A DNA stretch of 64,000 nt from Escherichia coli (GTDB lineage: Bacteria; Pseudomonadota; Gammaproteobacteria; Enterobacterales; Enterobacteriaceae): assembly GCF_041248615.1 (NCBI RefSeq), contig NZ_CP158426.1, one strand, 5' to 3'. Under the pieces are notes generated by a model, which saw only the letters and a list, made by a program, of their open reading frames with translations, was not told where the DNA came from and did no database searches. Below, piece after piece: positions 489-42,045 of this stretch (its first letter is position 1; each line of letters opens with the position of its first letter). The position numbers and the translations under genes are program-made.

Positions 489-504
489 AAATTATCCTTA
501 TTAT

Positions 505-765
505 TTATCCAAAACGGTAGGTGATGCCGAATCCGGAAGGCGGATAGCGCCACTGTTGTAGTGTTGATTCGTCGCACAGCAAACGGCAGGTGCCACACTC
601 CAGGCAGCCGCGATAATCAACGCGTAAGTCACCTTCCGGTGTGAGCAAAAAAAGACCAGCCGGACAAGCGTTAATCAACCGTTGTACCGTCTGGCGCTCA
701 ACGGAGTCAGCCGGAACAATGTGCGGCGCATCGGCAACGCGCCAGAGATTACGGACTACAGACAT
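505..765 (-). CDS. ygcO: ferredoxin-like protein (FixX-like)
   Basis: ORF 505..801; CxxCxxCxxxC motif (CLECGTCRLLC); start trimmed to internal Met MSVVRN (86 aa), giving a 10-nt overlap with ygcN. Confidence 0.7.
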   Translation of the reverse strand: MSVVRNLWRVADAPHIVPADSVERQTVQRLINACPAGLFLLTPEGDLRVDYRGCLECGTCRLLCDESTLQQWRYPPSGFGITYRFG

Positions 766-2027: not shown

Positions 2028-2104
2028 GTCGTGCCCCATATATCCAGAGCGCAACACCCTAACATAGCGTTACTTAAGGGAAATTGACCGCCGACACACT
2101 CTTA

Positions 2105-2470
2105 TCATTCGCCGCGATAGATGCAACCTGCGGTGCAGGTTTCTTTCACCATAACCGCACTTAACAGCGGAACAACCGGTTTAACCTGATCCCAAATCCA
2201 TTTTGCTAAAACCTCGCTGGTCGGGTTTTCCAGGCCAGGAATATCATTGAGATAATAGTGATCGAGGCGATCATAGGTTGGTTTAAATGCCGCTTTCAGT
2301 TCAGCGAAATCGATAATCCAGCCCGTATGCGGATCGACTTCCCCGGTAATTTCCAGTCGCACCATAAAGGAATGCCCGTGCAGGCGACCACATTTATGCC
2401 CTTCCGGGACGTGTGGTAAGCGGTGAGCGGCTTCGAAGGTGAAATCTTTAAATAACGTGGTGGACATCAT
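2105..2470 (-). CDS. queD: 6-carboxy-5,6,7,8-tetrahydropterin synthase
   Basis: ORF 2105..2554; QueD/PTPS-like sequence [35 protein letters not shown]; start trimmed to MMSTT at 2470 (121 aa). Confidence 0.85.
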
Positions 2471-2785
2471 AATTTCTCTACAGGACGATAAAACCGCCGT
2501 AGAGTACCGGAAAGGCTGTTTTTTCGCATTATCTAAAACGACTTTGTTGCGCAAAATCGCTGATTTATCTTATTGATGGGCAATATTCATTTGTTTTTCA
2601 TTGGGTTGGTTAATCTATTTTGTTGTTAAAGACTATTGCTAAAACAGGTTAGTCGATTTGGTTATTAGTTATCGCTATCCCGTCTTTAATCCACACCGTT
2701 CACCCCGTTAACCTTATCTTCTCTTCTGTTTTATGGGCGCTGACAGGGCGCAGAAACAGCTTTGCTTACTGGAACATAACGACGC

Positions 2786-4585
2786 ATGACGACACAGGTC
2801 CCACCTTCCGCGTTGCTTCCGTTGAACCCGGAGCAACTGGCACGCCTTCAGGCGGCCACGACCGATTTAACTCCCACCCAGCTTGCTTGGGTTTCTGGCT
2901 ATTTCTGGGGCGTGCTCAACCAGCAGCCTTCTGCGCTTGCAGCGACGCCAGCGCCCGCCGCAGAAATGCCGGGTATAACTATTATCTCCGCTTCGCAAAC
3001 CGGCAATGCGCGCCGGGTTGCTGAAGCATTACGCGATGATTTATTGGCGGCAAAACTGAACGTTAAGCTGGTGAACGCGGGCGACTATAAATTCAAACAA
3101 ATCGCCAGCGAAAAACTGCTTATCGTGGTGACGTCAACGCAAGGGGAAGGGGAACCGCCGGAAGAAGCCGTCGCGCTGCATAAGTTCCTGTTCTCCAAAA
3201 AAGCGCCGAAGCTGGAAAACACCGCGTTTGCCGTGTTTAGCCTCGGCGATAGTTCTTATGAATTTTTCTGCCAGTCCGGGAAAGATTTTGACAGTAAGCT
3301 GGCGGAACTGGGCGGTGAACGCCTGCTCGACCGTGTCGATGCCGACGTTGAATACCAGGCTGCTGCCATCGAGTGGCGCGCCCGCGTGGTTGATATTCTG
3401 AAGTCCCGTGCGCCTGTCGCGGCACCTTCGCAATCCGTCGCTACTGGCGCGGTAAATGAAATTCACACCAGCCCGTACAGCAAAGACGCGCCGCTGGTGG
3501 CGAGCCTCTCTGTTAACCAGAAAATTACCGGGCGTAACTCTGAAAAAGACGTTCGCCATATCGAAATTGACTTAGGTGACTCGGGCCTGCGTTACCAGCC
3601 GGGTGACGCGCTGGGCGTCTGGTATCAGAACGATCCGGCACTGGTGAAAGAACTTGTCGAACTGCTGTGGCTGAAAGGTGATGAACCTGTCACCGTCGAG
3701 GGCAAAACGTTGCCTCTGAACGAAGCGCTACAGTGGCACTTCGAACTGACCGTCAACACCGCCAACATTGTTGAGAACTATGCCACGCTTACCCGCAGCG
3801 AAACGCTGCTGCCGCTGGTGGGCGATAAAGCGAAGTTACAGCATTACGCCGCGACCACGCCGATTGTCGACATGGTGCGTTTCTCTCCGGCGCAACTGGA
3901 TGCCGAAGCGCTGATTAATCTGCTGCGCCCGCTGACCCCGCGCCTGTATTCCATCGCCTCCTCACAGGCGGAAGTCGAGAACGAAGTACACGTCACCGTT
4001 GGCGTGGTGCGTTACGACGTGGAAGGCCGCGCCCGTGCCGGTGGTGCCTCCAGCTTCCTCGCGGACCGCGTGGAAGAAGAGGGCGAAGTCCGCGTATTTA
4101 TCGAACATAACGACAACTTCCGCCTGCCAGCCAACCCAGAAACCCCGGTGATTATGATTGGCCCAGGCACCGGCATCGCGCCGTTCCGAGCCTTTATGCA
4201 GCAGCGCGCCGCTGACGAAGCGCCGGGTAAAAACTGGCTGTTCTTTGGCAATCCGCACTTTACGGAAGATTTCCTCTACCAGGTGGAATGGCAGCGCTAC
4301 GTCAAAGAGGGCGTGCTGACGCGTATCGATCTTGCCTGGTCGCGCGATCAAAAAGAAAAAATTTACGTACAAGACAAACTGCGCGAACAGGGCGCGGAGC
4401 TGTGGCGCTGGATCAATGACGGTGCCCACATTTATGTCTGCGGCGACGCTAATCGCATGGCGAAAGACGTTGAGCAGGCACTTCTGGAAGTGATTGCCGA
4501 ATTTGGTGGCATGGACACCGAAGCGGCGGATGAATTTTTAAGTGAGCTGCGCGTAGAGCGCCGTTATCAGCGAGATGTCTACTAA
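2786..4585 (+). CDS. cysJ: sulfite reductase [NADPH] flavoprotein alpha subunit
   Basis: 599 aa; flavodoxin-like N-terminal region then FAD/NADPH-binding C-terminal region; matches my recollection of E. coli CysJ; stop overlaps cysI start. Confidence 0.95.
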
Positions 4586-6297
4586 TGAGCGAAAAACATC
4601 CAGGGCCTTTAGTGGTCGAAGGAAAACTGACAGACGCCGAGCGCATGAAGCTTGAAAGCAACTACCTGCGCGGCACCATTGCGGAAGATTTAAACGACGG
4701 TCTGACCGGCGGCTTTAAGGGCGACAACTTCCTGCTGATCCGCTTCCACGGCATGTATCAGCAGGATGACCGCGACATCCGCGCCGAACGTGCTGAACAG
4801 AAGCTGGAGCCGCGCCACGCGATGCTGTTGCGCTGCCGTCTGCCGGGTGGCGTGATCACCACCAAACAGTGGCAGGCGATAGACAAATTTGCCGGTGAAA
4901 ACACCATCTATGGCAGCATTCGCCTGACCAACCGTCAGACGTTCCAGTTCCACGGTATTCTGAAAAAGAACGTCAAACCTGCGCACCAGATGCTGCACTC
5001 GGTCGGTCTTGATGCGCTGGCGACTGCTAACGACATGAACCGTAACGTACTCTGCACCTCGAACCCTTACGAGTCGCAGCTACACGCGGAAGCGTATGAA
5101 TGGGCGAAGAAAATCTCTGAACATCTGCTGCCGCGTACCCGCGCGTATGCGGAGATCTGGCTCGATCAGGAAAAAGTCGCCACCACCGATGAAGAACCGA
5201 TCCTCGGTCAGACTTATTTGCCGCGTAAATTCAAAACCACGGTAGTGATCCCGCCGCAGAACGATATCGATCTGCATGCCAACGACATGAACTTCGTGGC
5301 AATCGCCGAAAACGGCAAGCTGGTGGGCTTTAACCTGCTGGTGGGCGGTGGGCTTTCCATCGAGCACGGCAACAAGAAAACCTACGCCCGCACGGCGAGT
5401 GAGTTTGGTTATCTGCCGCTGGAGCATACGCTGGCGGTGGCGGAAGCCGTCGTGACAACTCAGCGTGACTGGGGTAACCGAACCGATCGTAAAAATGCCA
5501 AAACCAAATACACGCTGGAGCGCGTAGGGGTTGAGACGTTTAAAGCAGAAGTGGAACGTCGCGCGGGAATCAAATTCGAGCCGATCCGCCCGTATGAGTT
5601 CACCGGACGCGGCGATCGTATTGGCTGGGTTAAAGGCATTGATGATAACTGGCACCTGACGCTGTTTATCGAAAATGGTCGCATCCTTGATTATCCGGGG
5701 CGTCCGCTGAAAACTGGCCTGCTGGAGATCGCGAAGATCCACAAAGGTGATTTCCGCATTACGGCGAACCAGAATCTGATCATCGCCGGTGTGCCGGAAA
5801 GCGAGAAAGCGAAGATCGAGAAGATCGCCAAAGAGAGCGGGTTAATGAATGCCGTCACGCCGCAGCGTGAAAACTCAATGGCCTGCGTGTCATTCCCGAC
5901 TTGCCCGCTGGCGATGGCCGAAGCCGAGCGTTTCCTGCCGTCTTTTATCGACAACATCGATAATTTAATGGCGAAACATGGTGTCAGCGATGAGCATATC
6001 GTGATGCGTGTAACAGGCTGCCCGAACGGTTGTGGTCGCGCGATGCTGGCGGAAGTGGGCCTGGTGGGTAAAGCGCCGGGTCGCTACAACCTGCATCTTG
6101 GCGGCAACCGCATTGGGACACGTATCCCACGGATGTATAAAGAAAACATCACCGAGCCGGAAATCCTGGCGTCGCTTGATGAACTGATAGGGCGCTGGGC
6201 GAAAGAGCGCGAAGCGGGTGAAGGCTTCGGCGACTTTACGGTGCGTGCGGGCATCATTCGCCCGGTGCTCGATCCGGCGCGCGATTTGTGGGATTAA
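4585..6297 (+). CDS. cysI: sulfite reductase hemoprotein beta subunit
   Basis: 570 aa; siroheme/4Fe-4S cysteine cluster region ([10 protein letters not shown] ... TGCPNGCGR); 1-nt overlap with cysJ. Confidence 0.95.
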
Positions 6298-28274: not shown

Positions 28275-28682
28275 CTATTTGCTCATCATCTTGCGCACCA
28301 ACTGCATAAACAGCTCCTTCTCTTCTGCACTCAAACGCCCCAAAAATTCCTCATCCACACTGTCACCAATGGGGATCGCCGCAGCAAGTACCTTTTCTCC
28401 TTCGGCAGTCAGCCAGACAAAGCGACGCCGCTTGTCAGCGGCGTCATGTTCACGTCTGACTAAGCCACGATTTTCCATTCTTGCCAACATTTCTGCCAGC
28501 GTTGCTTTGGTGCTGACTGCTGCTTCTATCAGTGCCACCTGTTCGATACCAGGCTTATCAGCAATGGCGCGCATCACCGCGTACTGTGGTTTGGTGAGGT
28601 TAGGTAACTCGTGCTGCCAGCGAGCCGTGTGCTGCTGAAAAAGCTGTCGTAACTGATGGAACGCTTTATTTCGTAACGCCAT
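28275..28682 (-). CDS. MarR-family (SlyA-like) transcriptional regulator
   Basis: ORF 28275..28715; winged-helix MarR-like region; start placed at MALRNKAF (28682), which has a GGAG RBS; divergent from ecdB. Confidence 0.8.
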   Translation of the reverse strand: MALRNKAFHQLRQLFQQHTARWQHELPNLTKPQYAVMRAIADKPGIEQVALIEAAVSTKATLAEMLARMENRGLVRREHDAADKRRRFVWLTAEGEKVLAAAIPIGDSVDEEFLGRLSAEEKELFMQLVRKMMSK

Positions 28683-28798
28683 GTAAACTCCGGGCAAACT
28701 ATCTGCCGCTATCATAGCGGTTTTTCAGTGACGAAGAAGATGTTGTTACTTTTCAGTGCTTGCCGCGATGAAAACAGAGGCGTATTTTAATAATAACG

Positions 28799-28810
28799 TT
28801 CGTATACGAA
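28799..28810. promoter_or_regulatory. perfect 12-bp palindrome TTCGTATACGAA; candidate MarR-type operator at the ecdB promoter
   Basis: Self-complementary 12-mer 19 nt upstream of the ecdB ATG in the divergent regulator-ecdB intergenic region. Confidence 0.35.
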
Positions 28811-28828
28811 TAATTAAGAGAATAAACA

Positions 28829-29422
28829 ATGAGACTGATCGTCGGGATGACAGGGGCTACCGGTGCGCCTCTTGGGGTGGCATTACTGCAAGCGCTGCGG
28901 GAGATGCCGAATGTCGAGACTCATCTGGTGATGTCGAAGTGGGCGAAAACCACCATTGAACTGGAAACGCCTTACAGCGCTCGCGATGTTGCTGCCCTCG
29001 CAGACTTCAGTCATAACCCGGCGGATCAGGCGGCGACCATCTCCTCAGGTTCCTTTCGTACCGACGGCATGATCGTTATTCCGTGCAGTATGAAAACGCT
29101 CGCCGGTATCCGTGTCGGTTACGCCGATGGCCTGGTAGGGCGCGCGGCGGACGTCGTGCTCAAAGAAGGCCGCAAACTAGTGCTGGTGCCGCGTGAAATG
29201 CCGCTTAGCACAATCCATCTCGAAAATATGCTCGCACTTTCGCGCATGGGCGTGGCGATGGTGCCGCCGATGCCTGCCTTTTATAACCATCCCGAAACGG
29301 TAGATGACATTGTCCACCACGTGGTAGCCCGCGTGCTGGATCAATTTGGCCTCGAACATCCTCACGCCAGGCGCTGGCAAGGATTGCCGCAGGCCCGGAA
29401 TTTTTCTCAGGAGAATGAATAA
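28829..29422 (+). CDS. ecdB: UbiX-family flavin prenyltransferase (aka pad1)
   Basis: 197 aa; UbiX/Pad1-like N-terminus MRLIVGMTGATGAPLGVALL; 1-nt overlap with ecdC. Confidence 0.85.
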   Translation: MRLIVGMTGATGAPLGVALLQALREMPNVETHLVMSKWAKTTIELETPYSARDVAALADFSHNPADQAATISSGSFRTDGMIVIPCSMKTLAGIRVGYADGLVGRAADVVLKEGRKLVLVPREMPLSTIHLENMLALSRMGVAMVPPMPAFYNHPETVDDIVHHVVARVLDQFGLEHPHARRWQGLPQARNFSQENE

Positions 29423-30849
29423 TGGCATTTGATGATTTACGCAGCTTTTTACAGGCGCTTGATGACCACGGCCAGTTACTGAAAATCAGCGAAGAGGTGA
29501 ACGCGGAACCGGATCTGGCAGCCGCAGCCAACGCCACCGGGCGTATCGGCGACGGCGCGCCCGCGCTTTGGTTTGATAATATTCGCGGCTTTATCGATGC
29601 CCGCGTGGCAATGAACACCATCGGTTCCTGGCAGAACCACGCGATTTCCCTCGGCCTGCCGCCAAACACCCCGGTTAAAAAACAGATTGATGAGTTTATC
29701 CGCCGCTGGGATAACTTCCCCATTACCCCGGAGCGCCGCGCCAATCCAGCCTGGGCGCAGAACACCGTCGATGGCGACGAGATCAACCTGTTCGATATTC
29801 TGCCGCTGTTTCGTTTAAACGACGGTGATGGCGGTTTCTATCTCGATAAAGCGTGCGTGGTTTCCCGCGATCCGCTCGACCCGGATAACTTCGGCAAGCA
29901 GAACGTCGGCATCTACCGCATGGAAGTGAAGGGCAAACGTAAGCTCGGCCTGCAACCGGTGCCGATGCACGATATCGCTCTGCATCTGCATAAAGCGGAA
30001 GAACGCGGTGAAGATCTGCCGATTGCCATCACCCTGGGTAACGATCCGATCATCACCCTGATGGGCGCCACGCCGCTGAAATACGATCAGTCTGAGTACG
30101 AAATGGCGGGCGCGCTGCGCGAAAGCCCGTACCCGATCGCCACCGCCCCGCTGACCGGTTTTGATGTGCCGTGGGGCTCGGAAGTGATCCTCGAAGGGGT
30201 TATCGAAAGTCGTAAACGTGAGATTGAAGGGCCGTTCGGTGAGTTTACCGGCCACTACTCCGGCGGGCGTAACATGACCGTGGTGCGTATCGATAAAGTC
30301 TCTTACCGTACCAAACCGATTTTCGAATCGCTCTATCTTGGTATGCCGTGGACCGAAATCGACTACCTGATGGGGCCTGCCACCTGCGTGCCGCTGTATC
30401 AGCAACTGAAAGCCGAGTTCCCGGAAGTGCAGGCGGTAAACGCCATGTACACCCACGGCCTGTTGGCGATTATCTCCACCAAAAAACGCTACGGCGGCTT
30501 TGCCCGCGCGGTGGGCCTGCGTGCAATGACCACGCCGCACGGTCTGGGCTACGTGAAGATGGTGATTATGGTCGATGAAGACGTTGATCCGTTCAACCTG
30601 CCGCAGGTGATGTGGGCGCTCTCCTCGAAAGTGAACCCGGCAGGCGACCTGGTGCAGTTGCCAAATATGTCCGTGCTGGAACTCGACCCTGGCTCAAGCC
30701 CGGCGGGGATCACCGACAAGCTGATTATCGACGCCACCACGCCTGTCGCCCCGGACAACCGTGGTCACTACAGCCAGCCGGTGGTGGATTTACCGGAAAC
30801 CAAAGCCTGGGCTGAAAAACTGACCGCTATGCTGGCCGCACGTAAATAA
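29422..30849 (+). CDS. ecdC: UbiD-family (prFMN-dependent) aromatic acid decarboxylase (aka yclC)
   Basis: 475 aa, UbiD-like; operon partner of the UbiX homologue. Confidence 0.85.
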   Translation: MAFDDLRSFLQALDDHGQLLKISEEVNAEPDLAAAANATGRIGDGAPALWFDNIRGFIDARVAMNTIGSWQNHAISLGLPPNTPVKKQIDEFIRRWDNFPITPERRANPAWAQNTVDGDEINLFDILPLFRLNDGDGGFYLDKACVVSRDPLDPDNFGKQNVGIYRMEVKGKRKLGLQPVPMHDIALHLHKAEERGEDLPIAITLGNDPIITLMGATPLKYDQSEYEMAGALRESPYPIATAPLTGFDVPWGSEVILEGVIESRKREIEGPFGEFTGHYSGGRNMTVVRIDKVSYRTKPIFESLYLGMPWTEIDYLMGPATCVPLYQQLKAEFPEVQAVNAMYTHGLLAIISTKKRYGGFARAVGLRAMTTPHGLGYVKMVIMVDEDVDPFNLPQVMWALSSKVNPAGDLVQLPNMSVLELDPGSSPAGITDKLIIDATTPVAPDNRGHYSQPVVDLPETKAWAEKLTAMLAARK

Positions 30850-30859
30850 GGAGAACAAG

Positions 30860-31096
30860 ATGATTTGTCCACGTTGTGCTGATGAACAGATTGAAGTGAT
30901 GGCGAAATCGCCGGTAAAAGATGTCTGGACAGTCTATCAGTGCCAGCATTGCCTCTATACCTGGCGCGATACCGAACCGCTTCGCCGCACCAGCCGCGAA
31001 CATTACCCGGAAGCGTTTCGTATGACGCAGAAAGACATTGATGACGTGCCAATGGTGCCGAGCATTCCGCCGCTGCTGGCGGAAGGTAAGCGTTAA
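30860..31096 (+). CDS. ecdD: small zinc-ribbon subunit of phenolic acid decarboxylase (BsdD/VdcD-like)
   Basis: 78 aa; CPRC...CQHC pair typical of the small D subunit. Confidence 0.75.
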   Translation: MICPRCADEQIEVMAKSPVKDVWTVYQCQHCLYTWRDTEPLRRTSREHYPEAFRMTQKDIDDVPMVPSIPPLLAEGKR

Positions 31097-31104
31097 TAAA
31101 AAGT

Positions 31105-31132
31105 GCCGGGTAGTGGCTTTGCTTTACCCGGC
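31105..31132. terminator. hairpin between convergent ecdD and pphB
   Basis: Perfect 8-bp stem GCCGGGTA/TACCCGGC with 12-nt loop, then CTCATTACTTTATTTTAT. Confidence 0.45.
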
Positions 31133-31136
31133 CTCA

Positions 31137-31793
31137 TTACTTTATTTTATAAAATGACAGCCGCCCGCTTTTCGGCGATCCGGTATCAATATAAATCTGG
31201 TTTGCGAACGTCTGAATGTTATCAAACATCATATGTCCAAATATAAAATAATCAGCGCCGTTTATTTGTTGTAACTCGCCATTAAGCGATTTCTGCACAC
31301 GATCAACAGGCCAGAGTAATTCTCTCTCCGCTATTTCTTTGCCAAAGAGATATTCACTCCCCGGATAATCTGCATGTGCGATGACATATTTTATTATGTC
31401 GTTAGTGATTTCAATAATATGTGGAAGGTGATGAAATTTCAGCAACAGATCTATTGCTTCTTGTTGTTCCGTCTCATTTAATTCAAAGAACCAGTCGCCG
31501 CCGCTGGCAAGCCACATATTGCCATCGCCGGTCGCGAACGCATCCAACGCCATCGCTTCATGGTTGCCTTTAACCGATGTAAACCAGGGCTGGTTTAGCA
31601 GGTGCAGCACGTTAAGACTCTCCGGCCCACGATCAATATTATCGCCGACAGAAATAAGTAAGTCGGCTTCAGGGCAAAAAGAGAGTTGATGTAAGCGGGA
31701 TTGTAATAATTGATAGTCACCATGAATATCACCAACGGCCCATATATGGCGATAGTGATGGGCATTGATTTTTTGATAGCGTGTAGATGGCAT
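31137..31793 (-). CDS. pphB: serine/threonine protein phosphatase 2
   Basis: 218 aa; metallophosphatase motifs GDIHG, GDNIDRG, GNHE. Confidence 0.9.
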   Translation of the reverse strand: MPSTRYQKINAHHYRHIWAVGDIHGDYQLLQSRLHQLSFCPEADLLISVGDNIDRGPESLNVLHLLNQPWFTSVKGNHEAMALDAFATGDGNMWLASGGDWFFELNETEQQEAIDLLLKFHHLPHIIEITNDIIKYVIAHADYPGSEYLFGKEIAERELLWPVDRVQKSLNGELQQINGADYFIFGHMMFDNIQTFANQIYIDTGSPKSGRLSFYKIK

Positions 31794-31898
31794 GGTTTTA
31801 CCCTGTAAAATAAGCTTTCCTATTATACAGGGTATTTTTATTTGATTCGTCAGTTGTCGTTAATATTCCCGATAGCAAAAGACTATCGGGAATTGTTA

Positions 31899-34460
31899 TT
31901 ACACCAGACTCTTCAAGCGATAAATCCATTCCAGCGCCTGACGCGGGGTGAGTGAATCCGGGTCCAGGTTTTCCAGTGCCTCGACCGCAGGCGACGTTTC
32001 TTCTGGCACTGACAGCAAAGACATTTGCGTACCATCCACTTGCGTAGCGGCGGCGTTCGGCGAAATGCTTTCCAGCTCACGCAGTTTTTGCCGTGCGCGC
32101 TTAATAACCTCTTTTGGCACGCCCGCCAGAGCAGCAACCGCCAGGCCGTAGCTTTTGCTCGCCGCGCCATCCTGCACGCTGTGCATAAAGGCAATGGTGT
32201 CGCCGTGCTCCAGTGCATCAAGATGCACGTTGGCGACGCCTTCCATTTTCTCCGGTAACTGGGTTAGCTCGAAATAGTGGGTGGCAAACAACGTCAACGC
32301 TTTAATCTTATTCGCCAGATTTTCCGCGCACGCCCACGCCAGCGACAGACCATCGTAAGTGGAGGTTCCGCGCCCAATCTCATCCATCAGCACCAGACTG
32401 TACTCGGTGGCGTTATGTAAAATATTGGCGGTTTCGGTCATCTCCACCATAAAGGTTGAACGCCCGGATGCCAGATCATCCGCTGCCCCTACGCGGGTAA
32501 AGATGCGATCGATAGGTCCAATCTCGACTTTTTGTGCCGGTACATAGCTGCCGATGTAGGCCATCAGCGCAATCAGTGCGGTCTGGCGCATATAGGTACT
32601 TTTACCGCCCATATTCGGACCGGTAATGATCAACATGCGACGCTGCGGCGACAGGTTCAGCGGGTTGGCGATAAATGGCTCGTTCAGTACCTGTTCAACC
32701 ACCGGATGGCGGCCTTCGGTGATGCGAATACCCGGTTTATCAATGAAGGTCGGGCAGGTGTAGTTCAGGGTATAGGCCCGCTCCGCCAGGTTAACCAGCA
32801 CATCAAGTTCTGCCAGTGCGCTTGCGCTCTGTTGCAACGCTTCCAGATGCGGCAACAGCAGGTCGAACAGCTCTTCATAAAGCTGTTTTTCCAGTGCCAG
32901 TGCTTTGCCTTTTGAGGTGAGAACTTTATCTTCGTACTCTTTTAGCTCTGGAATAATGTAGCGTTCGGCGTTTTTCAGCGTCTGGCGGCGCATGTAGTTA
33001 ATCGGTGCCAGATGGCTTTGTCCACGGCTGATCTGAATGTAATAACCATGCACCGCGTTAAATCCGACTTTCAGCGTGTCCAGGCCGGTACGTTCACGCT
33101 CGCGGACTTCCAGACGCTCCAGATAATCGGTCGCGCCGTCAGCCAGCGCGCGCCACTCATCCAGCTCTTCGTTATAGCCCGATGCGATAACACCACCGTC
33201 GCGCACCAGTACCGGCGGTGTGTCGATAATGGCCCGCTCCAGCAGATCGCGCAGTTCGGCAAACTCACCCATCTTCTCACGCAGCGCCTGTACCGGTGCA
33301 CTATTGACAGTTTCTAACTGCGCGCGCAGCTCCGGCAGTTGCTGGAAAGCGTGACGCATACGGGCCAGATCGCGTGGGCGAGCAGTTCGTAAAGCCAGAC
33401 GCGCCAGAATACGTTCCAGGTCGCCGACCTGACGCAGTACCGGCTGCAGCTCGGCGGTGAAATCCTGCAATGCGCCAATAGTTTGCTGGCGCTCAAGCAA
33501 GACGCGGGTATCGCGCACTGGCATATGCAGCCAGCGTTTCAGCATACGGCTGCCCATCGGCGTGACGGTGCAGTCGAGCACAGAAGCCAGCGTATTTTCC
33601 GCACCACCCGCCAGGTTCTGGGTGATTTCCAGATTACGACGCGTCGCGGCATCCATAATGATGCTGTCCTGCTCACGTTCCATGGTGATGGAACGAATAT
33701 GCGGCAGAGTCGTACGTTGGGTATCTTTCGCATACTGCAACAGACAACCGGCAGCACAAAGTCCGCGCGGCGCGTTCTCGACGCCAAAACCGACCAGATC
33801 GCGGGTGCCAAATTGCAGATTCAACTGCTGGCGCGCGGTGTCGATTTCAAACTCCCACAGCGGGCGACGGCGCAGGCCGCGACGGCCTTCAATTAACGAC
33901 ATTTCAGCAAAATCTTCTGCATACAGCAGTTCCGCAGGATTAGTGCGTTGCAGTTCTGCCGCCATCGTTTCCCGGTCAGCCGGTTCGCTCAGGCGAAAAC
34001 GACCGGAGCTGATATCCAGCGTCGCGTAGCCGAAACCTTTGCTGTCCTGCCAGATAGCCGCCAGCAGGTTGTCCTGACGCTCCTGCAACAGGGCTTCATC
34101 GCTGATGGTGCCTGGCGTAACGATACGCACAACTTTGCGCTCAACCGGACCTTTGCTGGTCGCCGGATCGCCAATTTGTTCGCAGATGGCAACGGACTCG
34201 CCCTGATTCACCAGTTTGGCGAGGTAGTTTTCCACCGCATGGTAGGGAATCCCCGCCATCGGGATCGGCTCTCCCGCCGAAGCACCGCGTTTGGTCAGTG
34301 AAATATCCAGCAGTTGCGATGCGCGTTTTGCGTCGTCATAAAACAGTTCATAAAAATCACCCATCCGGTAAAACAGCAGGATCTCGGGATGCTGGGCTTT
34401 CAGCTTGAGATATTGCTGCATCATGGGCGTATGGGCATCGAAATTTTCTATTGCACTCAT
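31899..34460 (-). CDS. mutS: DNA mismatch repair protein MutS
   Basis: 853 aa; Walker [10 protein letters not shown]; full-length. Confidence 0.97.
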
Positions 34461-34706
34461 GGGGTTATGTCCGGTTCCCTGATATTAAATGGGGTGTGAT
34501 GGTTTTTATTTTCGTTGTAATCACATAAGGCGCACATGATACCGGAGTTAATCATTTCAGGGGAAGAAGCGAACGGCGAGTTCTTGATGGTGATTCCGGG
34601 AAAGATGCTGTTTTGCAGCTTTTGCGTGATGATTATGAAGCAAGTACGCAAAATTGCGTCGGTTGAATAAACCTCCTCCTTCAGAGCCATAGTCCCCTTT
34701 CAAATT

Positions 34707-34729
34707 AAGTTGTAATATAAATACACCTT
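34707..34729 (+). promoter_or_regulatory. candidate NsrR operator upstream of ygbA
   Basis: AAGTTGTAATATAAATACACCTT, an imperfect 11-1-11 inverted repeat resembling the NsrR consensus as I recall it, 18 nt upstream of the ygbA ATG. Confidence 0.4.
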
Positions 34730-34746
34730 AAGAGTATGGAGGCAGC

Positions 34747-35091
34747 ATGTCCGGCAAGCGTATCTCTCGTGAAAAACTGACGATTAAAAAAATGATCGAT
34801 CTTTATCAAGCGAAATGCCCGCAGGCGTCAGCGGAGCCGGAGCATTACGACGCGCTGTTTGCCTACGCGCAAAAGCGGCTGGATAAATGTGTGTTCGGCG
34901 AAGAGAAACCAGCCTGTAAGCAGTGTCCGGTGCACTGTTACCAGCCTGCAAAGCGTGAAGAGATGAAACAGATTATGCGTTGGGCCGGGCCGAGAATGCT
35001 GTGGCGTCATCCGATCTTAACCGTGCGTCATCTCATCGATGACAAGCGTCCGGTGCCGGAGTTGCCAGAAAAATATCGTCCAAAGAAATAA
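34747..35091 (+). CDS. ygbA: nitrous oxide-stimulated promoter family protein
   Basis: 114 aa; cysteine pattern CPQ...CKQCPVHCYQ. Confidence 0.85.
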   Translation: MSGKRISREKLTIKKMIDLYQAKCPQASAEPEHYDALFAYAQKRLDKCVFGEEKPACKQCPVHCYQPAKREEMKQIMRWAGPRMLWRHPILTVRHLIDDKRPVPELPEKYRPKK

Positions 35092-35129
35092 ATCTGCCGG
35101 AGAGCCATACTCTCCGGCAAATAAGGCGT

Positions 35130-35558
35130 TTACGCTTTGGTGGCAATCAGGATGGCTGATGCTTTGATCAATGCAATAACGCGCGAGCCAGTGGTGAGTT
35201 TCATTTCATCCTGACTTTCATTTGTTACCACTGCCACAATTTCAAAACCCGCATCCGTTTTGATATGGACAGTGGCGTTCACTGCGCCTTCGGTGATTGT
35301 CGACACGCTGCCAGCAAACTGGTTGCGAGCAGAGAATTTCAGTCCACAGTCTTCCGTTGCCAGCGTTACCCACGGGGCTTTAATCAGGGCAATCGCTTCT
35401 TTCCCTTTCGCCAGACCCAGCGCTTGCTGGCTGCTGTGAGTCACAATTGCCACCAGCTTTGCACCACCTGCCAGCGTCAGTTCTACTTCGTCATTCACCG
35501 CGCCCATTGCTACTGCGCTAACTGTTCCGGTTAATTGATTTCTTGCTGAAACTGCCAT
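35130..35558 (-). CDS. molybdopterin/molybdate-binding protein, tandem Mop (TOBE) domains
   Basis: ORF 35130..35597; start placed at MAVSARNQLTGTV (35558) with AGGAGG RBS; two roughly 70-aa repeats (SARNQLTGTVSAV... / SARNQFAGSVSTI...). Confidence 0.8.
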   Translation of the reverse strand: MAVSARNQLTGTVSAVAMGAVNDEVELTLAGGAKLVAIVTHSSQQALGLAKGKEAIALIKAPWVTLATEDCGLKFSARNQFAGSVSTITEGAVNATVHIKTDAGFEIVAVVTNESQDEMKLTTGSRVIALIKASAILIATKA

Positions 35559-35602
35559 ACTGCCTCCTTTCATTGAATGTTGATCGAGTATAACCACATC
35601 TG

Positions 35603-37681
35603 TTAAATCAATGCCGATTTATCAATTCCCAGTCGCTTCATCCGTGACAGCAGAGTCGTGCGTTTCAGCCCCAGACGTTGCGCAGCGCCTTTAGGCCCGG
35701 CAACCACGCCGTTTGTTTCTTTCAGCACGCGAACAATCAACTGATATTCATCTTCGCCCTCCTGGGCGACAACCGTTGCGGCAGGCGGCGTTTCTGGTTC
35801 CGGTAAAACAATATCTGGCAGTGACAGCTGCAGCACGTTGCCGCGTGTTAGCAATACCGCGCGCTCGATGACGTTTTCCAGTTCGCGCACGTTACCCGGC
35901 CACTCCATGTTGCTCAAGGTGCGCAACGTCTCGGCAGGAATGCTGTCGATATTGCGCCCCAGACGACGGGCAATTTTGAAGGTAAAGGCTTTCGCCAGCA
36001 GCGGAATATCTTCCGGACGCTCGCGCAGGGGCGGCAGGTGGATCGGGAATACGTTCAGGCGGTAATAGAGATCGCTACGGAACTCTCGGTCGGCGACCAT
36101 TTTTTTCAGATCGCGGTTAGTCGCGGCAATTAAACGTACGTCCGTCTGAATGATTTTGTTGCTGCCGAGGCGTTCAAACTCCTGTTCCTGTAATACACGC
36201 AGCAACTTCGGCTGTAACTCCAGTGGCATATCGCCCACTTCGTCGAGGAACAGGGAGCTTTTATCCGCCAGTTCAAAACGACCAATGCGCTGGGCGCTGG
36301 CACCGGTAAAAGCCCCACGCTCATGACCAAACAGATCGCTCTCCAGCAATCCGGCAGGCATCGCCGCGCAGTTCATTTTTACCATGCGGCGATTATTACG
36401 CCCACTGAGATTATGGATAGCACGGGCAATCAGCTCTTTACCTGTACCAGTTTCACCGAGAATCAGCACGGTACTGTCGCTTTGCGCCACCATTTCAACT
36501 TGTTTAAGTACGCTGTACATGGCTTCGCTGCGGCCAATAATCTCGCCAAATTCACTATCAACATTGTTGAGCTGCTCGGTCAGGGCGAGGTTTTCATCAA
36601 CCAGCCGTTCTTTCAGACGATGGATTTCCTGATAGGCGAGGGCGTTATCGACAGCGATTGCCACACGTTCGGCAATCTGGCGCAGTAAATTCAGATTGGT
36701 AGTGGTAAACACTTTCTCTTCGCATTGCGCCAGTTTCAGCACGCCCAGCATGGTGTCGCCAGACATCAGCGGTAACAGGCACAAGGTTTGAATCTGGTTG
36801 CCCCAGGTGTCGAACAACATGCGTTCATAGGGGGCTAAATCGTCCCGCTCGTGGAGATTAATCAGCAGCATCTCTTTGCTTTTGAACACGCGTTCGGTGA
36901 GGGTTCCGGCTTCATCGACTTCGCTCTGTTCGTGGGCGGGATGCTGTTTATCAAGATAGTGAGTGGAGTAGATGTTGAGTTTGTTTTTACGGTGGCTGCG
37001 TAAGACGATGCTGATATCGTCAATGTCGAAGTAGTAATGGATTTCTTTGGCGACTTCGCTGACCAGTTCGTCCATATCCAGGCGGGAAAGCACCGCGTTG
37101 GTAATGGCAACCAGGATGCGGAAGTTATCGCGCTCCCGGCATAACAACTCATAGTCGACATTGTTAACGACGCGGCTCTGGATTTGTTCGGTGACGACAG
37201 AAACGATCTGCGTAAATGTTTGCAGACGATTGAACTCTTTTTCGCTCCAGGGGCGATCGTCATAACGAATAAATTCACAGCCACCAAAAATATGCCCTTC
37301 CGCCGCCAGTGGCATCAGGCAATAGTGACCAAATTTGGGGTATAGCCCACCTGCGGCCAGCTGCGGCCAGGTTTCACAAAATTCTTCGTAACTGCAATGC
37401 AGCGTATCAGGGCGCGACAAAATGCTGCGTACCGGACCGTGTGCCAGAACAGTTTCGTCTTCATATTTAATGGGGGTGTCTTTTTCACGCGATGCGTAAT
37501 AAGACGCACGTTGAGTCTGCGCTTGCCACAACACAATAGCCGCGTTGTCGGCGAGCGCAGAACGCTTTACCAGTTGCGAAAGAGCCTCACACAGCGAGGC
37601 CAGATCGGGCTGCTGCAATAGTGTCCGAGTGATGTCGAACAACCCTTGTTGTCCGAGATCACTCATCGGTGTATATGACAT
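35603..37681 (-). CDS. fhlA: formate hydrogenlyase transcriptional activator (sigma-54 enhancer-binding protein)
   Basis: ORF 35603..37717 over-extended; start at MSYTPMSDLGQQGLFDITR (692 aa); AAA+ sigma-54 activator motifs GETGTGKE and GAFTGA, C-terminal HTH. Confidence 0.93.
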   Translation of the reverse strand: MSYTPMSDLGQQGLFDITRTLLQQPDLASLCEALSQLVKRSALADNAAIVLWQAQTQRASYYASREKDTPIKYEDETVLAHGPVRSILSRPDTLHCSYEEFCETWPQLAAGGLYPKFGHYCLMPLAAEGHIFGGCEFIRYDDRPWSEKEFNRLQTFTQIVSVVTEQIQSRVVNNVDYELLCRERDNFRILVAITNAVLSRLDMDELVSEVAKEIHYYFDIDDISIVLRSHRKNKLNIYSTHYLDKQHPAHEQSEVDEAGTLTERVFKSKEMLLINLHERDDLAPYERMLFDTWGNQIQTLCLLPLMSGDTMLGVLKLAQCEEKVFTTTNLNLLRQIAERVAIAVDNALAYQEIHRLKERLVDENLALTEQLNNVDSEFGEIIGRSEAMYSVLKQVEMVAQSDSTVLILGETGTGKELIARAIHNLSGRNNRRMVKMNCAAMPAGLLESDLFGHERGAFTGASAQRIGRFELADKSSLFLDEVGDMPLELQPKLLRVLQEQEFERLGSNKIIQTDVRLIAATNRDLKKMVADREFRSDLYYRLNVFPIHLPPLRERPEDIPLLAKAFTFKIARRLGRNIDSIPAETLRTLSNMEWPGNVRELENVIERAVLLTRGNVLQLSLPDIVLPEPETPPAATVVAQEGEDEYQLIVRVLKETNGVVAGPKGAAQRLGLKRTTLLSRMKRLGIDKSALI

Positions 37682-37754
37682 TTTGTTCTTCCAGGAAAGC
37701 ACCGCAAAGCGGTGCAAAAGGTCATTGACTAACTATAGGAGATTTAGAATTTTA

Positions 37755-38765
37755 TTAGCATATACGCGGAAGCGGTTCGGCGTGTGGTAAATCGAGGGTT
37801 CGTTTCACGCCATACAGACCGGCAAGACGAACACCTTTACGTTCCACCACTTCACCAATCAGCGCCGCGTCTTTCCCCAGTGGATGGGAATGTAACGCTG
37901 CCAAAACTTGCTCTGCCGCGTTGCGTTCAACGGCGATCACCAGTTTGCCTTCGTTGGCAAAGTTAAGGGCGTCCAGTCCCAGCAGTTCGCAAACGCCGCG
38001 CACAGCAGGTTTAACCGGCAGTGCCGCTTCTGAAATTTCAATACCGCAACCGCAGGCTGCCGCGAACTCATGAACTACCGCGTTTACACCACCACGGGTG
38101 GCATCACGCAGCGCTTTCACGCCGGGAATGTCACGCAGCGTCTGAATAAGCGGCGTTAGTACCGCGCAGTCGCTGACCAGTTCGCCGTCCAGCCCCAGTT
38201 GCTCACGCAGGTTAAGGATAGTCGCCCCGTGGTCGCCGAGCGTGCCGCTAACCAGTAATACATCGCCTGCGGTTAGCGTCTGTGCGCCCCAGTGAATATT
38301 CGCCGGAATTGCGCCCATGCCAGCGGTGTTGATAAACAGTTTATCTGCCGCGCCGCGCTGCACCACTTTAGTATCGCCAGTGACGATGGCAATGCCTGCC
38401 GCGCGGGCGGTTTCTGCCATGCTGGTCACTACGGCTTTCAGTGTCTCCATCGGCAATCCTTCTTCGAGGATAAAGCCACAGGAGAGATAGCGCGGAATAG
38501 CGCCACTGACCGCAACGTCATTCGCGGTGCCGCAAATCGCCAGCTTGCCGATATTACCGCCAGGAAAGAACAGCGGGTCAATGACGTAACTGTCGGTGGA
38601 GAACGCCAGACGGTCGCCTTCCGCTACCAGCTGCGCCAGATCAAGACGGGCCTGATCTTCCTGCTCTGCCAGCCACGGGTTGGCAAAGGCTTCCATAAAT
38701 AGGCTGTTGATTAATTGCTGCATCGCCTGGCCGCCGCTGCCGTGGGCGAGTTGGATATTATTCAC
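37755..38765 (-). CDS. hypE: hydrogenase maturation carbamoyl dehydratase HypE
   Basis: 336 aa; terminal ...PRIC cysteine; hyp operon order. Confidence 0.92.
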   Translation of the reverse strand: MNNIQLAHGSGGQAMQQLINSLFMEAFANPWLAEQEDQARLDLAQLVAEGDRLAFSTDSYVIDPLFFPGGNIGKLAICGTANDVAVSGAIPRYLSCGFILEEGLPMETLKAVVTSMAETARAAGIAIVTGDTKVVQRGAADKLFINTAGMGAIPANIHWGAQTLTAGDVLLVSGTLGDHGATILNLREQLGLDGELVSDCAVLTPLIQTLRDIPGVKALRDATRGGVNAVVHEFAAACGCGIEISEAALPVKPAVRGVCELLGLDALNFANEGKLVIAVERNAAEQVLAALHSHPLGKDAALIGEVVERKGVRLAGLYGVKRTLDLPHAEPLPRIC

Positions 38766-39883
38766 GCTTCACTCTCCTGCTGACGATACTGATACCACGC
38801 GGCGCACGCTCCTTCGGAGGAAACCATCAGCGCACCAAACGCGGTTTGAGGATTACAGGTGTTACCAAACAGCGGGCATTGATGCGGCTTACATTTGCCC
38901 GTTAATACTTCGCCACAACGTGCGCGCGGGTCATCGCAGACCTGCTGCGGTGCCGGGCGGAAATGCGCTTCGGCATCGAATCGTTGATAATCCGGCGTCA
39001 GGTGTACACCAGAAGATTCAATCACGCCTAAGCCGCGCCATTCGCTGTCGCCGTTGACACAGAACACATCGGCAATCGCCTGTTGCGCCAGCAGGTTACC
39101 GGCATCCGGCACCACCCGACGATACTGATTCTCTACCTTGCTGTGGGCCGCTATTTTCTGCTCCACCAGCATCACCACGCCTTGCAGTAGATCAAGGGGT
39201 TCGAAACCAGCGACCACCAGCGGACGATGAAAATCGCTGGCGATAAAATTATAGGCATCAGTGCCGATAACCATACTAACGTGACCGGGCGCAAGAAACG
39301 CGTCGATACCGTTATCCGGCTCTTCCAGCAAACTGCGCAGCGTCGGGATAAGCGTAATATGCTGGCAGAAGAAGTAAAAATTCTGCACATCACGCGCTTT
39401 CGCCTGTTGCAGAGTGATGGCCGTCGTCGGCATGGTGGTTTCAAAACCTAAGCCGAAGAACACCACTTTGCGGGTTGGATTCTCCTGCGCCAGTTTCAAC
39501 GCATCCATCGGCGAGTAAACGATGCGCACATCGGCACCGCGTGCTTTTGCCTGCAACAGCGATCCCTGTTTCCCCGGCACGCGCATGGCGTCACCAAAGG
39601 TACAGAAGATGACTTCCGGATGACTGGCAATCTCCACGCAGGTGTCGATTCTACCCATCGGCAGTACGCACACCGGGCAACCGGGACCGTGGATAAACTC
39701 AACGTTTTCCGGCAGCAACTGGTCGAGGCCGAATTTAAAAATGGCGTGGGTATGACCACCGCACACTTCCATAATCCGCAGAGGGCGTTCGGCGGTGTAA
39801 GAGAGATGTGAAGCACGTTCGCGCAGATGCTCAATTAACTGCATCACCTGTTCCGGCGAGCGATATTCATCAACAAAACGCAT
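38762..39883 (-). CDS. hypD: hydrogenase maturation factor HypD
   Basis: 373 aa; CGxH and CPVC motifs. Confidence 0.92.
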   Translation of the reverse strand: MRFVDEYRSPEQVMQLIEHLRERASHLSYTAERPLRIMEVCGGHTHAIFKFGLDQLLPENVEFIHGPGCPVCVLPMGRIDTCVEIASHPEVIFCTFGDAMRVPGKQGSLLQAKARGADVRIVYSPMDALKLAQENPTRKVVFFGLGFETTMPTTAITLQQAKARDVQNFYFFCQHITLIPTLRSLLEEPDNGIDAFLAPGHVSMVIGTDAYNFIASDFHRPLVVAGFEPLDLLQGVVMLVEQKIAAHSKVENQYRRVVPDAGNLLAQQAIADVFCVNGDSEWRGLGVIESSGVHLTPDYQRFDAEAHFRPAPQQVCDDPRARCGEVLTGKCKPHQCPLFGNTCNPQTAFGALMVSSEGACAAWYQYRQQESEA

Positions 39884-40155
39884 TATTTTTCCTCGCCATA
39901 CAACAGCGCACCGACATCCGGCTCAACGTCAAACATGTTTTGTAAGGCGTCGAGAGTGTCGCGCGCTTCGGCTTCATTAATTACGCTCATGGCAAAGCCA
40001 ACGTGAACCAGTACCCACTGGCCCACGCGCGGCTGACCGTTTTCATCGCAGCTGCCGACTAACGTTAAATCGACATCGCGCTGAATGCCGCAGACGTCGA
40101 CTTTCGCCTGGTTGCCGTCAATGGTGCGGATCTGGCCGGGAACGCCTATGCACAT
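39883..40155 (-). CDS. hypC: hydrogenase maturation factor HypC
   Basis: ORF 39883..40182 over-extended; HypC must begin MC- ([14 protein letters not shown]), so start 40155, 90 aa. Confidence 0.9.
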
Positions 40156-41018
40156 CGCTGTGTCTCCAGCCAGTTCAGCCACTGGTCCATCCCTTCGCCG
40201 CTGGTGGCGGAAATAAGGATGATTTCAATTTCTGGATTGACTTCGCGGGCGCAGGCGATGCACTTCTCAACGTCAAAGTTGAGATACGGCAGCAAGTCAA
40301 CTTTGTTGAGCAGCATCAGCGAAGCTGCGGCAAACATATGCGGATATTTCAGCGGTTTGTCTTCACCTTCGGTAACGGAAAGCACCGCCACTTTGTGTTT
40401 TTCACCGAGATCGAAGCTGGCCGGGCACACGAGGTTGCCGACGTTTTCGATAAACAGAATACCGTTATCGTCCAGTGGCAGGCGCGGTGCGGCGTCGGCA
40501 ATCATCTGTGCGTCAAGATGGCAGCCTTTACCGGTATTCACCTGAATCGCTGGTGTGCCGGTAGCGCGAATGCGCGCGGCATCGTTCACGGTTTGCTGGT
40601 CGCCTTCAATAACCGCGCACGGAACGCTGTCTTTCAGGCGCATTAAGGTTTCCGTCAGCAGGGTGGTTTTACCGGAACCAGGGCTGGAAACCAGGTTGAG
40701 CACCAGTTGCTTGCGGGCAGCAAAGCGCGCGCGGTTGCGTTCAGCCAGACGGTTATTTTTGTCCAGCACGTCAATTTCGACTTCCAGCATCCGACGCTGG
40801 CTCATGCCCGGCGCGTGAGTACCCGCTTCGCCATGACCGTAATGCAGGTCGCCTTCTTCAGTCTGGCTGGGGGTAAATTCAGGCGCTTTAATGCCGGTGA
40901 TTTTCATCTTCGGGCGTGCCGCCGGGGCAAATGGCGCGCTACGAAACGCGGAATGAGGGTTATGTTCATCACCCTCGATATACAGGTTGCCTTCACCGCA
41001 ACCGCATGTTGTACACAT
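40146..41018 (-). CDS. hypB: hydrogenase nickel incorporation GTPase HypB
   Basis: 290 aa; N-terminal CTTCGC metal site, P-loop GSPGSGKTT. Confidence 0.93.
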
Positions 41019-41021
41019 CGC

Positions 41022-41372
41022 TCACTCCTGGTCTATTTCTATCCGCCGAATCTGTAAACCGTCGTCTGCCACAATCTGTAGCATGTCACCATGACACTGT
41101 GGACAGCGGCGGACGCGCTGGGTCAGTAGCGTCACATACTGTTGGCATGTTTCACACCAGCATTCGGCCTCTTGTTCTTCGAGGTGCAGTTTACAACCTT
41201 CCGCCACGCTGCCGCGGCAAACCAGATCAAAACAAAAGGCAAGAGAGCTGGTTTCGACACAAGAAAATGCGCCAATTTTGAGCCAGACCCCAGTTACGCG
41301 TTTTGCGCCGTGTTTTGCGGCCTGCTGTTCGATCAATTCCAGTGCCCGTTGGCAGAGGGTTATTTCGTGCAT
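41022..41372 (-). CDS. hypA: hydrogenase nickel insertion protein HypA
   Basis: ORF 41022..41384; start MHEITLCQRALELIEQ (116 aa); CxxC...CxxC zinc site. Confidence 0.9.
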   Translation of the reverse strand: MHEITLCQRALELIEQQAAKHGAKRVTGVWLKIGAFSCVETSSLAFCFDLVCRGSVAEGCKLHLEEQEAECWCETCQQYVTLLTQRVRRCPQCHGDMLQIVADDGLQIRRIEIDQE

Positions 41373-41402
41373 ATCGCCTCCCATTAACTATTGCCAGCTA
41401 CA

Positions 41403-41418
41403 AGCAATAATTGTGCCA
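41403..41418 (-). promoter_or_regulatory. sigma-54 promoter (-24/-12) for the hyp operon
   Basis: Minus strand reads TGGCAC-AATTA-TTGCT, a near-perfect sigma-54 consensus about 30 nt upstream of hypA. Confidence 0.6.
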
Positions 41419-41531
41419 GTGTTGATTATCCCTGCGGTGAATAATGTCGATGATGTCGAAATGACACGTCGACACGGCGACGAAATTCATCTTTAGCTTA
41501 AAAATCGCTTTAATAACAATTAATTAAAAGT

Positions 41532-41547
41532 TGGCATGGAAAATGCT
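41532..41547 (+). promoter_or_regulatory. sigma-54 promoter (-24/-12) for the hyc operon
   Basis: TGGCAT-GGAAA-ATGCT with GG-N10-GC spacing about 37 nt upstream of hycA. Confidence 0.55.
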
Positions 41548-41583
41548 TAAAGCTGGCATCTCTGTTAAACGGGTAACCTGACA

Positions 41584-42045
41584 ATGACTATTTGGGAAAT
41601 AAGCGAGAAAGCCGATTACATCGCACAGCGGCATCGTCGCCTACAGGACCAGTGGCACATCTACTGCAATTCGCTGGTTCAGGGGATCACGTTATCGAAA
41701 GCGCGCCTGCATCACGCCATGAGCTGCGCGCCGGACAAAGAACTCTGTTTCGTCCTTTTTGAACATTTTCGTATTTACGTCACCCTGGCGGATGGCTTTA
41801 ACAGCCACACCATCGAGTATTACGTCGAAACAAAAGATGGTGAAGTCAAACAGCGGATTGCGCAGGCGCAACTGAGCATTGACGGCATGATTGATGGCAA
41901 GGTCAACATCCGCGATCGCGAACAGGTTCTGGAACACTATCTCGAAAAAATCGCTGGCGTTTACGACAGCTTATACACCGCCATTGAAAACAATGTGCCG
42001 GTGAATTTAAGCCAACTGGTAAAGGGACAAAGCCCGGCAGCATGA
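41584..42045 (+). CDS. hycA: formate hydrogenlyase regulatory protein HycA
   Basis: 153 aa; first gene of hyc operon. Confidence 0.9.
   Translation: MTIWEISEKADYIAQRHRRLQDQWHIYCNSLVQGITLSKARLHHAMSCAPDKELCFVLFEHFRIYVTLADGFNSHTIEYYVETKDGEVKQRIAQAQLSIDGMIDGKVNIRDREQVLEHYLEKIAGVYDSLYTAIENNVPVNLSQLVKGQSPAA

Follow-up and report, generated by a model that had tools for sequence, protein, structure and literature searches.

A ModG-like di-Mop gene beside fhlA, conserved across enterobacteria and lost by one deletion from about two-thirds of Escherichia coli

Within the window (the whole 64,000-nt stretch of Escherichia coli DNA that was analysed), a single open reading frame fills the interval between the stop of ygbA (35091, + strand) and that of fhlA (35603, – strand). 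The gene, referred to here as mop, occupies 35130–35558 on the – strand, from an ATG at 35558 to a TAA stop at 35130–35132, and its product is a 142-aa di-Mop (ModG-like) molbindin with the sequence ends MAVSARNQ...LIATKA. Directly upstream on the same strand lies fhlA (35603–37681, –), encoding the formate hydrogenlyase transcriptional activator, while ygbA (34747–35091, +; NO-stimulated promoter family, 114 aa; PF11756, 4e-41) is convergent with mop. The wider neighbourhood comprises mutS on one side and hypEDCBA and hycA-I on the other. The original prediction of a 142-aa protein between ygbA and fhlA is borne out for both the reading frame and its flanks; the span given for it, 35092–35602, describes the whole interval from stop to stop, of which the gene proper takes up only 35130–35558. 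RefSeq lists the product as WP_000301062.1 under the label ‘TOBE domain-containing protein’, and elsewhere as ‘molybdopterin-binding protein’ or ‘transporter’, with no gene symbol. Elsewhere around the locus, a 44-aa ORF between mutS and ygbA (34536–34670, +) is annotated as a hypothetical protein in many RefSeq genomes (e.g. WP_000611936.1), and the variable rpoS–mutS region (~28275–31793, following the annotation of the collinear genome L056) contains genes for a MarR-family regulator, pphB, and subunits B, C and D of a hydroxyarylic acid decarboxylase.

Orthologues were surveyed using one genome per species, which gave 49 loci, 48 of them enterobacterial and including two from Salmonella. 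All 48 enterobacterial copies are 142 aa long without indels, and 58 residues are invariant among them. The ratio dN/dS falls between 0.03 and 0.12 in comparisons with E. albertii, Citrobacter, Klebsiella, Pluralibacter, Kluyvera, Yokenella, Kosakonia, Cedecea and Edwardsiella. The gene is under strong purifying selection; its constant length and low dN/dS identify it as a real gene and exclude a pseudogene or chance reading frame. A longer, GTG-initiated reading of 155 aa is possible but disfavoured, because the ATG at 35558 is preceded at 4 nt by the Shine-Dalgarno sequence GGAGG (35563–35567, –), the GGAG core of which occurs in 48 of 48 orthologous loci, and because all orthologues, together with ModG, begin at an M-x-x-SARN motif.

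The 44-nt spacer between fhlA and mop (35559–35602, –) has a minimum free energy of –8.6 kcal/mol (z +0.58) and contains no terminator-like site. In the window, the first strong hairpin after fhlA lies just past the mop stop, and consists of a G+C-rich stem of 14 pairs followed by a U-run (35092–35122, –; –25.2 kcal/mol, z –6.4), a terminator shared with the convergent ygbA. With no stable structure in the spacer and no strong terminator before the end of mop, fhlA transcripts should read through the gene, which on this anatomy is probably the last of the hyp–fhlA transcription unit. In K-12 this hairpin, altered by compensatory changes, comes immediately after fhlA. Transcripts of fhlA in K-12 originate from a formate/FhlA-dependent promoter before hypA and from internal promoters. 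The word ‘standalone’, as applied to mop in the original prediction, is doubtful, since the surroundings of the gene point to co-transcription with fhlA.

A -10-like box, TATACT (35587–35592, –), is positioned 34 nt before the ATG. The hexamer TATACT, TATAAA or TATAAC is found at this distance in Escherichia, Citrobacter, Pseudocitrobacter, Pluralibacter and related loci, and slightly further upstream in Kluyvera. A mop copy on a Salmonella island keeps the hexamer although no fhlA lies upstream, and in Lelliottia a GC-rich inverted repeat, read by eye as a terminator, stands between fhlA and the hexamer. This conservation, including the Salmonella and Lelliottia cases, suggests that mop has an additional promoter of its own, for which the box is a candidate with a poor -35; owing to that -35, a consensus scan called no sigma-70 promoter between 34400 and 36000. 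Inspection by eye revealed no sigma-54 –24/–12 element in the 44-nt spacer, the sequence of which is not conserved there. The whole window contains no match to a ModE operator (TATAT-N5-9-TAYAT; CGNTATATA-N6-TATATANCG, with at most 3 mismatches), so that direct control of mop by ModE is unsupported, and an Rfam scan of 30000–42000 returned no RNA family.

Among 5426 complete E. coli genomes, in 5419 of which the locus flanks were detected, the mop locus is essentially biallelic. The gene is present in 1892 of the 5426 genomes (34.9%), as one chromosomal copy in every case, and 1889 of these copies are full length. An identical deletion junction occurs in 3499 (64.5%), 3487 of these at 99% identity or more to a 49-nt probe centred on the junction, the flanking arms of which are too short to seed in mop carriers; approximately 35 genomes have neither mop nor the standard junction. 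Named carriers are O25b:H4-ST131, APEC O18, APEC O2:K1:H4 and ST648, and named non-carriers are K-12, O157:H7, O103:H2 and O111:H8; in addition, IAI39 carries the gene and O104:H4 does not (PMC7232297). The K-12-type genomes EPI300, K-12 J53 and BM28 are without mop; in K-12 derivatives ~470 bp are missing, corresponding to the gene plus spacer, and the fhlA stop falls within ~10 nt of the ygbA-side hairpin. The original statement that K-12 has only a short fhlA–ygbA spacer was correct. The exact junction, ...GGCAATTTGCAG joined to TTAAATC..., is common to K-12 EPI300, an O111:H8 strain and strain 06-3462.

The deletion allele also has a different ygbA 3′ end, with a product of 117 aa ending KKPHE as against 114 aa in the window (window 35040–35125 versus L001 1840–1933), and its hairpin differs from that of the window by compensatory changes (GCCGGACAGGCAGATCTGTCCGGC versus GCCGGAGAGCCATACTCTCCGGC). 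Because the ygbA end and the hairpin differ as well, the two alleles are distinct haplotypes beyond the indel. A separate case is E. coli FDAARGOS_1285 (NZ_CP070152.1; L055 2288–3126), in which an IS1A element truncates mop to its first ~46 codons and itself abuts nlpD. The DNA that would separate the two genes, with ygbA, mutS, pphB and rpoS, is missing at this locus, and the strain is accordingly predicted to be a mutS/rpoS-null mutator.

Across enterobacterial species, the end of fhlA lies 36–101 nt upstream of mop on the same strand in 35 of 44 species loci, in the order hypE-fhlA-mop. The gene directly follows fhlA in E. albertii, a cryptic Escherichia clade, Citrobacter, Klebsiella, Raoultella, Kluyvera, Pluralibacter, Enterobacter, Yokenella, Lelliottia and Kosakonia, and E. 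fergusonii is also among the carriers (PMC7232297). In three more loci (two Phytobacter, one Kosakonia), fhlA is missing and hypE lies directly upstream; here, in Phytobacter diazotrophicus, P. ursingii and Kosakonia sp. S29 (L034, L039 and L046, ~5865–6001), the hypE-to-mop spacer is 128–132 nt and mop is still attached to the hyp operon. Synonymous divergence was compared with that of neighbouring genes in the same genome pairs: (i) against E. albertii, dS is 0.37 for mop, 0.57 for hypE and 0.33 for ygbA, and (ii) against C. amalonaticus, the values are 1.09, 1.19 and 1.87, respectively. That mop tracks hypE and ygbA in this way indicates vertical co-inheritance. Judged from the fhlA linkage in 35 of 44 species loci and the neighbour-like dS, mop was ancestrally present at its fhlA-adjacent site and the K-12 state is derived, one clean deletion having removed the gene from about two-thirds of E. 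coli, among them K-12.

The opposite direction, a recent insertion of mop into an originally short fhlA–ygbA spacer, was implied by the original prediction, which described the gene as inserted. The short spacer of K-12, the existence of a mobile copy in Salmonella and the reputation of the fhlA–mutS interval as an island hotspot (PMC7232297) would all fit such an event. However, the position of mop is identical in 35 species, its dS is comparable to the values for hypE and ygbA, 3499 genomes have one and the same deletion junction, and no repeats or mobility genes were seen at the mop boundaries; we consider insertion very improbable, and the direction proposed originally has to be reversed. 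The side of mop away from fhlA is the variable one, with ygbA adjacent in 19 loci and otherwise 1–5 kb of intervening DNA, e.g. sitABCD-like transporter genes. Islands are found downstream of the gene; in all 35 fhlA-linked loci the stretch from fhlA to mop is free of them. Accordingly, the hotspot for insertions reported in the fhlA/mutS interval (PMC7232297) is on the far side of mop, and the fhlA–mop junction is preserved.

In Serratia, Cedecea, Edwardsiella and an island of Salmonella, the gene is found at sites not next to fhlA. In Salmonella enterica (L051/L052, 7001–7429), the copy is 87–89% identical, is not beside fhlA, and is surrounded by genes for a fimbrial usher, a chaperone, a DUF6429 protein and an IS66 TnpB; its TATACT box and Shine-Dalgarno sequence are retained. 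This location implies that mop has been mobilised at least once. An orthologue at the Salmonella fhlA/SPI-1 boundary had been expected, and the copy looked up sits in the fimbrial/IS66 island instead.

Profile searches of the product gave two stretches each for Pfam PF03459 (TOBE; E 8.8e-35) and NCBIfam TIGR00638 (Mop; E 4.1e-42), in agreement with the two Mop repeats first read from the sequence. The stretches cover residues 2–69 and 73–140 of 142 and leave no other domain, and the two halves are identical to one another at 30 of 70 residues. An AlphaFold model built on 21 sequences (pLDDT 96.4) was compared with solved structures by Foldseek, giving a TM score of 0.95 and an rmsd of 1.4 Å against ModG (1H9J), and TM scores of 0.88–0.90 against the ModE di-Mop domain. 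The tungbindin Tub provides a guide to the ligand positions: its type-1 sites are formed by the backbone of Ala20-Val21-Asn22 on the threefold axis, its type-2 sites by Ser4, Arg6, Lys60 and Ala61 from one chain and Ser40 from its neighbour, and these oxyanion sites are described as resembling those of ModG, Mop and ModE (PMC11980592). In ungapped alignment, the equivalents in the mop product are S4, R6, A20-V21-N22, T40, K60 and A61 in the first half, and S76, R78, A92-V93-N94, T112, K132 and A133 in the second; ModG has the identical residue at each of these positions. The type-2 ligand positions (Ser4, Arg6, Ser/Thr40, Lys60 and Ala61 in Tub numbering) are therefore filled in both halves, and the type-1 loops, G19-A20-V21-N22 and G91-A92-V93-N94, are the same as in ModG. 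Across 45 distinct orthologues, the ligand positions are invariant or at least 90% conserved. By its sequence, the product thus has the full site inventory of a storage-type molbindin, unlike the sensor domain of ModE. Oxyanion binding, a trimeric state and the Mo/W preference are properties that we infer by analogy.

Taken together with the gene’s position, this inventory leads us to favour, as somewhat the more probable account overall, a ModG-type cytoplasmic Mo/W buffer encoded last in the hyp–fhlA unit and serving molybdoenzyme synthesis. Such a protein would bind molybdate, and probably tungstate equally, at sites between Mop domains, and would trimerise to mimic a Mop hexamer, as ModG does. 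Transcription as the distal gene of a hypABCDE–fhlA unit would place its synthesis under anaerobic, formate-induced conditions, with some expression probably also arising from a weak promoter of its own. By storing or buffering cytoplasmic molybdate, it could sustain the supply of molybdenum cofactor when Mo is scarce, to the benefit of formate dehydrogenase-H (FDH-H) and other molybdoenzymes; it may also move the Mo set-point, by competing for the molybdate that ModE binds. FDH-H is itself a molybdoenzyme, and maximal fdhF and hyc expression in K-12 needs ModE-molybdate, FhlA and formate (PMC3149613). A role in molybdate storage or homeostasis for the formate hydrogenlyase pathway, as first proposed, would be reasonable insofar as ligand conservation and conserved fhlA linkage both fit it. 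Nonetheless, mop is dispensable for that pathway, given that formate hydrogenlyase operates in ~65% of E. coli, among them K-12, in the absence of the gene, and its role need not be specific to formate hydrogenlyase, since the gene is also found away from fhlA and is kept in two species with fhlA no longer upstream.

These last points raise the question of whether the link to formate hydrogenlyase matters at all. A general Mo store with no special tie to the pathway, its place beside fhlA being a historical accident kept by inertia, would suit the unrelated contexts in Serratia, Cedecea, Edwardsiella and the Salmonella fimbrial/IS66 island, as well as the independent expression suggested by the conserved -10-like box. 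We regard it as unlikely, because the 36–101 nt fhlA junction survives in 35 species despite an insertion hotspot downstream (PMC7232297). The ligand is a further point of divergence: instead of buffering both metals, the protein might mainly trap tungstate, keeping it away from the molybdenum cofactor of FDH-H and other enzymes. Either oxyanion is bound by sites of the Mop family, and tungstate is present in a crystal structure of the ModE di-Mop domain (1H9R); moreover, the affinities of Tub for Mo and W are similar, and many predicted W users have ModG-type architectures (PMC11980592). However, selectivity of the mop product between Mo and W cannot be read from its sequence, in which no feature discriminates the two, and the annotated neighbourhood shows no genes for a tungsten transporter or for W-enzymes, which makes dedicated tungstate sequestration quite unlikely in our estimation.

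A regulatory rather than a buffering function is a further alternative. Here, the di-Mop protein would sense molybdate and modulate FhlA, or ModE through mixed Mop-domain oligomers, tying expression of the formate hydrogenlyase regulon, or repression of modABC, to Mo availability. The linkage to fhlA is tight, conserved and closer than to any molybdoenzyme gene, and the sensory di-Mop domain of ModE is a homologue of the protein. In Rhodobacter capsulatus, Wiethaus and co-workers reportedly found in 2009 that Mop interacts with the ModE-like MopB, which would favour such a partnership. The formate hydrogenlyase regulon of K-12 is, in addition, Mo-responsive via ModE (PMC3149613). Against this, type-1 (GAVN) and type-2 sites are present in both halves, as in the storage proteins ModG and Tub and unlike ModE; the protein has no DNA-binding or other interaction domain; and mop persists where fhlA is not adjacent. 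We therefore judge a regulatory partner to be an unlikely description of mop. A bolder form, which strikes us as decidedly improbable, is that the protein was the ancestral, dedicated Mo sensor of the formate hydrogenlyase regulon, reporting molybdate to FhlA, or to ModE via mixed Mop oligomers. In that case, the deletion would have left K-12 with a derived, reduced circuit, namely the ModE-dependent Mo control of hyc and fdhF, and the Mo/tungstate-responsiveness of anaerobic formate metabolism in carriers (B2, F and most other enterics) would not be the same as in K-12.

The favoured Mo/W buffer would likewise have consequences for how strains are compared. When Mo is limiting, the supply of molybdoenzymes in carriers could be unlike that in K-12, and their ModE set-point and tungstate sensitivity could also differ. 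The last of these may be of relevance in the inflamed gut, where tungstate is said, in a proposal attributed to Zhu et al. in 2018, to suppress enterobacterial molybdoenzymes. Work on E. coli Mo homeostasis and formate hydrogenlyase rests largely on K-12-type strains, which are without mop; the standard model strain has thus lost a conserved component of the probable hyp–fhlA unit, while most Enterobacteriaceae and about a third of E. coli (ST131, APEC O18 and ST648 included) carry this strongly conserved ModG-like gene. In the literature searched, we found no experimental study of the enterobacterial protein, whether of binding, expression or phenotype. A comparative paper of 2020 noted the gene at this locus as ‘a single transcriptional regulator modE’ (PMC7232297). 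That name is a misnomer for a protein with no DNA-binding domain, and the present result corrects both the published label and the direction assumed for the indel, at a locus common in studies of SPI-1/mutS-region evolution.

Within the well-known Mop family, of which mop is an uncharacterised member, ModE offers the first point of comparison. The C-terminal di-Mop domain of E. coli ModE (PDB 1H9S, 1O7L) shares its fold with the mop product at 39% identity (E 1e-15), and the ModE residues S126, R128, T163, S166, K183 and A184 are the same at the aligned positions of the first half. In contrast, the second half of ModE has lost its ligands (N198, D200, P234, N252), whereas that of the mop product keeps the full set; the GAVN type-1 motif is present in the mop product and absent from ModE, and the N-terminal helix-turn-helix domain of ModE is absent from the mop product. 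The ModE profile NF007957 scores 88 bits on the protein, compared to a cut-off of 369, and matches through profile positions 124–261 only. A ModE-type regulator was ruled out on these grounds, given the missing DNA-binding domain, the length of 142 aa and the sub-threshold score. A ModC-type ABC ATPase with a TOBE tail was also rejected, as no part of the ATPase domain was matched; the ModC and WtpC profiles align through their last ~65 positions only, at 26–49 bits versus cut-offs of 285–440. A recent duplication of the 3′ half of modE was discarded, the mop product being nearer to ModG (49%) than to E. coli ModE (39%).

The single-domain molbindins resemble each half of the protein in turn. 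Tub from Eubacterium limosum (9BEB), a single-domain hexamer, aligns without gaps to each half at 40% identity and an rmsd of 1.1–1.4 Å, and all of its type-1 and type-2 ligand positions are present in each. The hexameric Mop proteins of C. pasteurianum (MopII, 1GUG) and S. ovata (1FR3) match each half likewise. In mop, unlike these hexamers, the two domains are fused in one chain, and a trimer would be expected for an eight-site assembly, going by ModG.

The closest parallel is with ModG itself, the cytoplasmic molybdate-binding molbindin of Azotobacter vinelandii (PDB 1H9J/1H9K/1H9M), which likewise consists of two fused Mop domains only. It is the best solved relative of the mop product (1H9J; phmmer E 5e-33, residues 1–140 versus 4–143); the two proteins, of 145 and 142 aa, are identical at 68 of 140 positions (49%) without gaps. 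Both have the SARN, GAVN, (V/I)T and KA(P/S) ligand motifs in both halves; residue 115 is Ser in the mop product and Ala in ModG. The modG gene is located in a mod locus and is linked to nitrogenase. The genomic setting of mop is unlike this, in that the gene ends a probable hyp–fhlA unit in non-diazotrophic enterics and has no molybdate transport neighbours. ModG is a trimer that binds eight molybdates and has a role in Mo homeostasis (PMC11980592).
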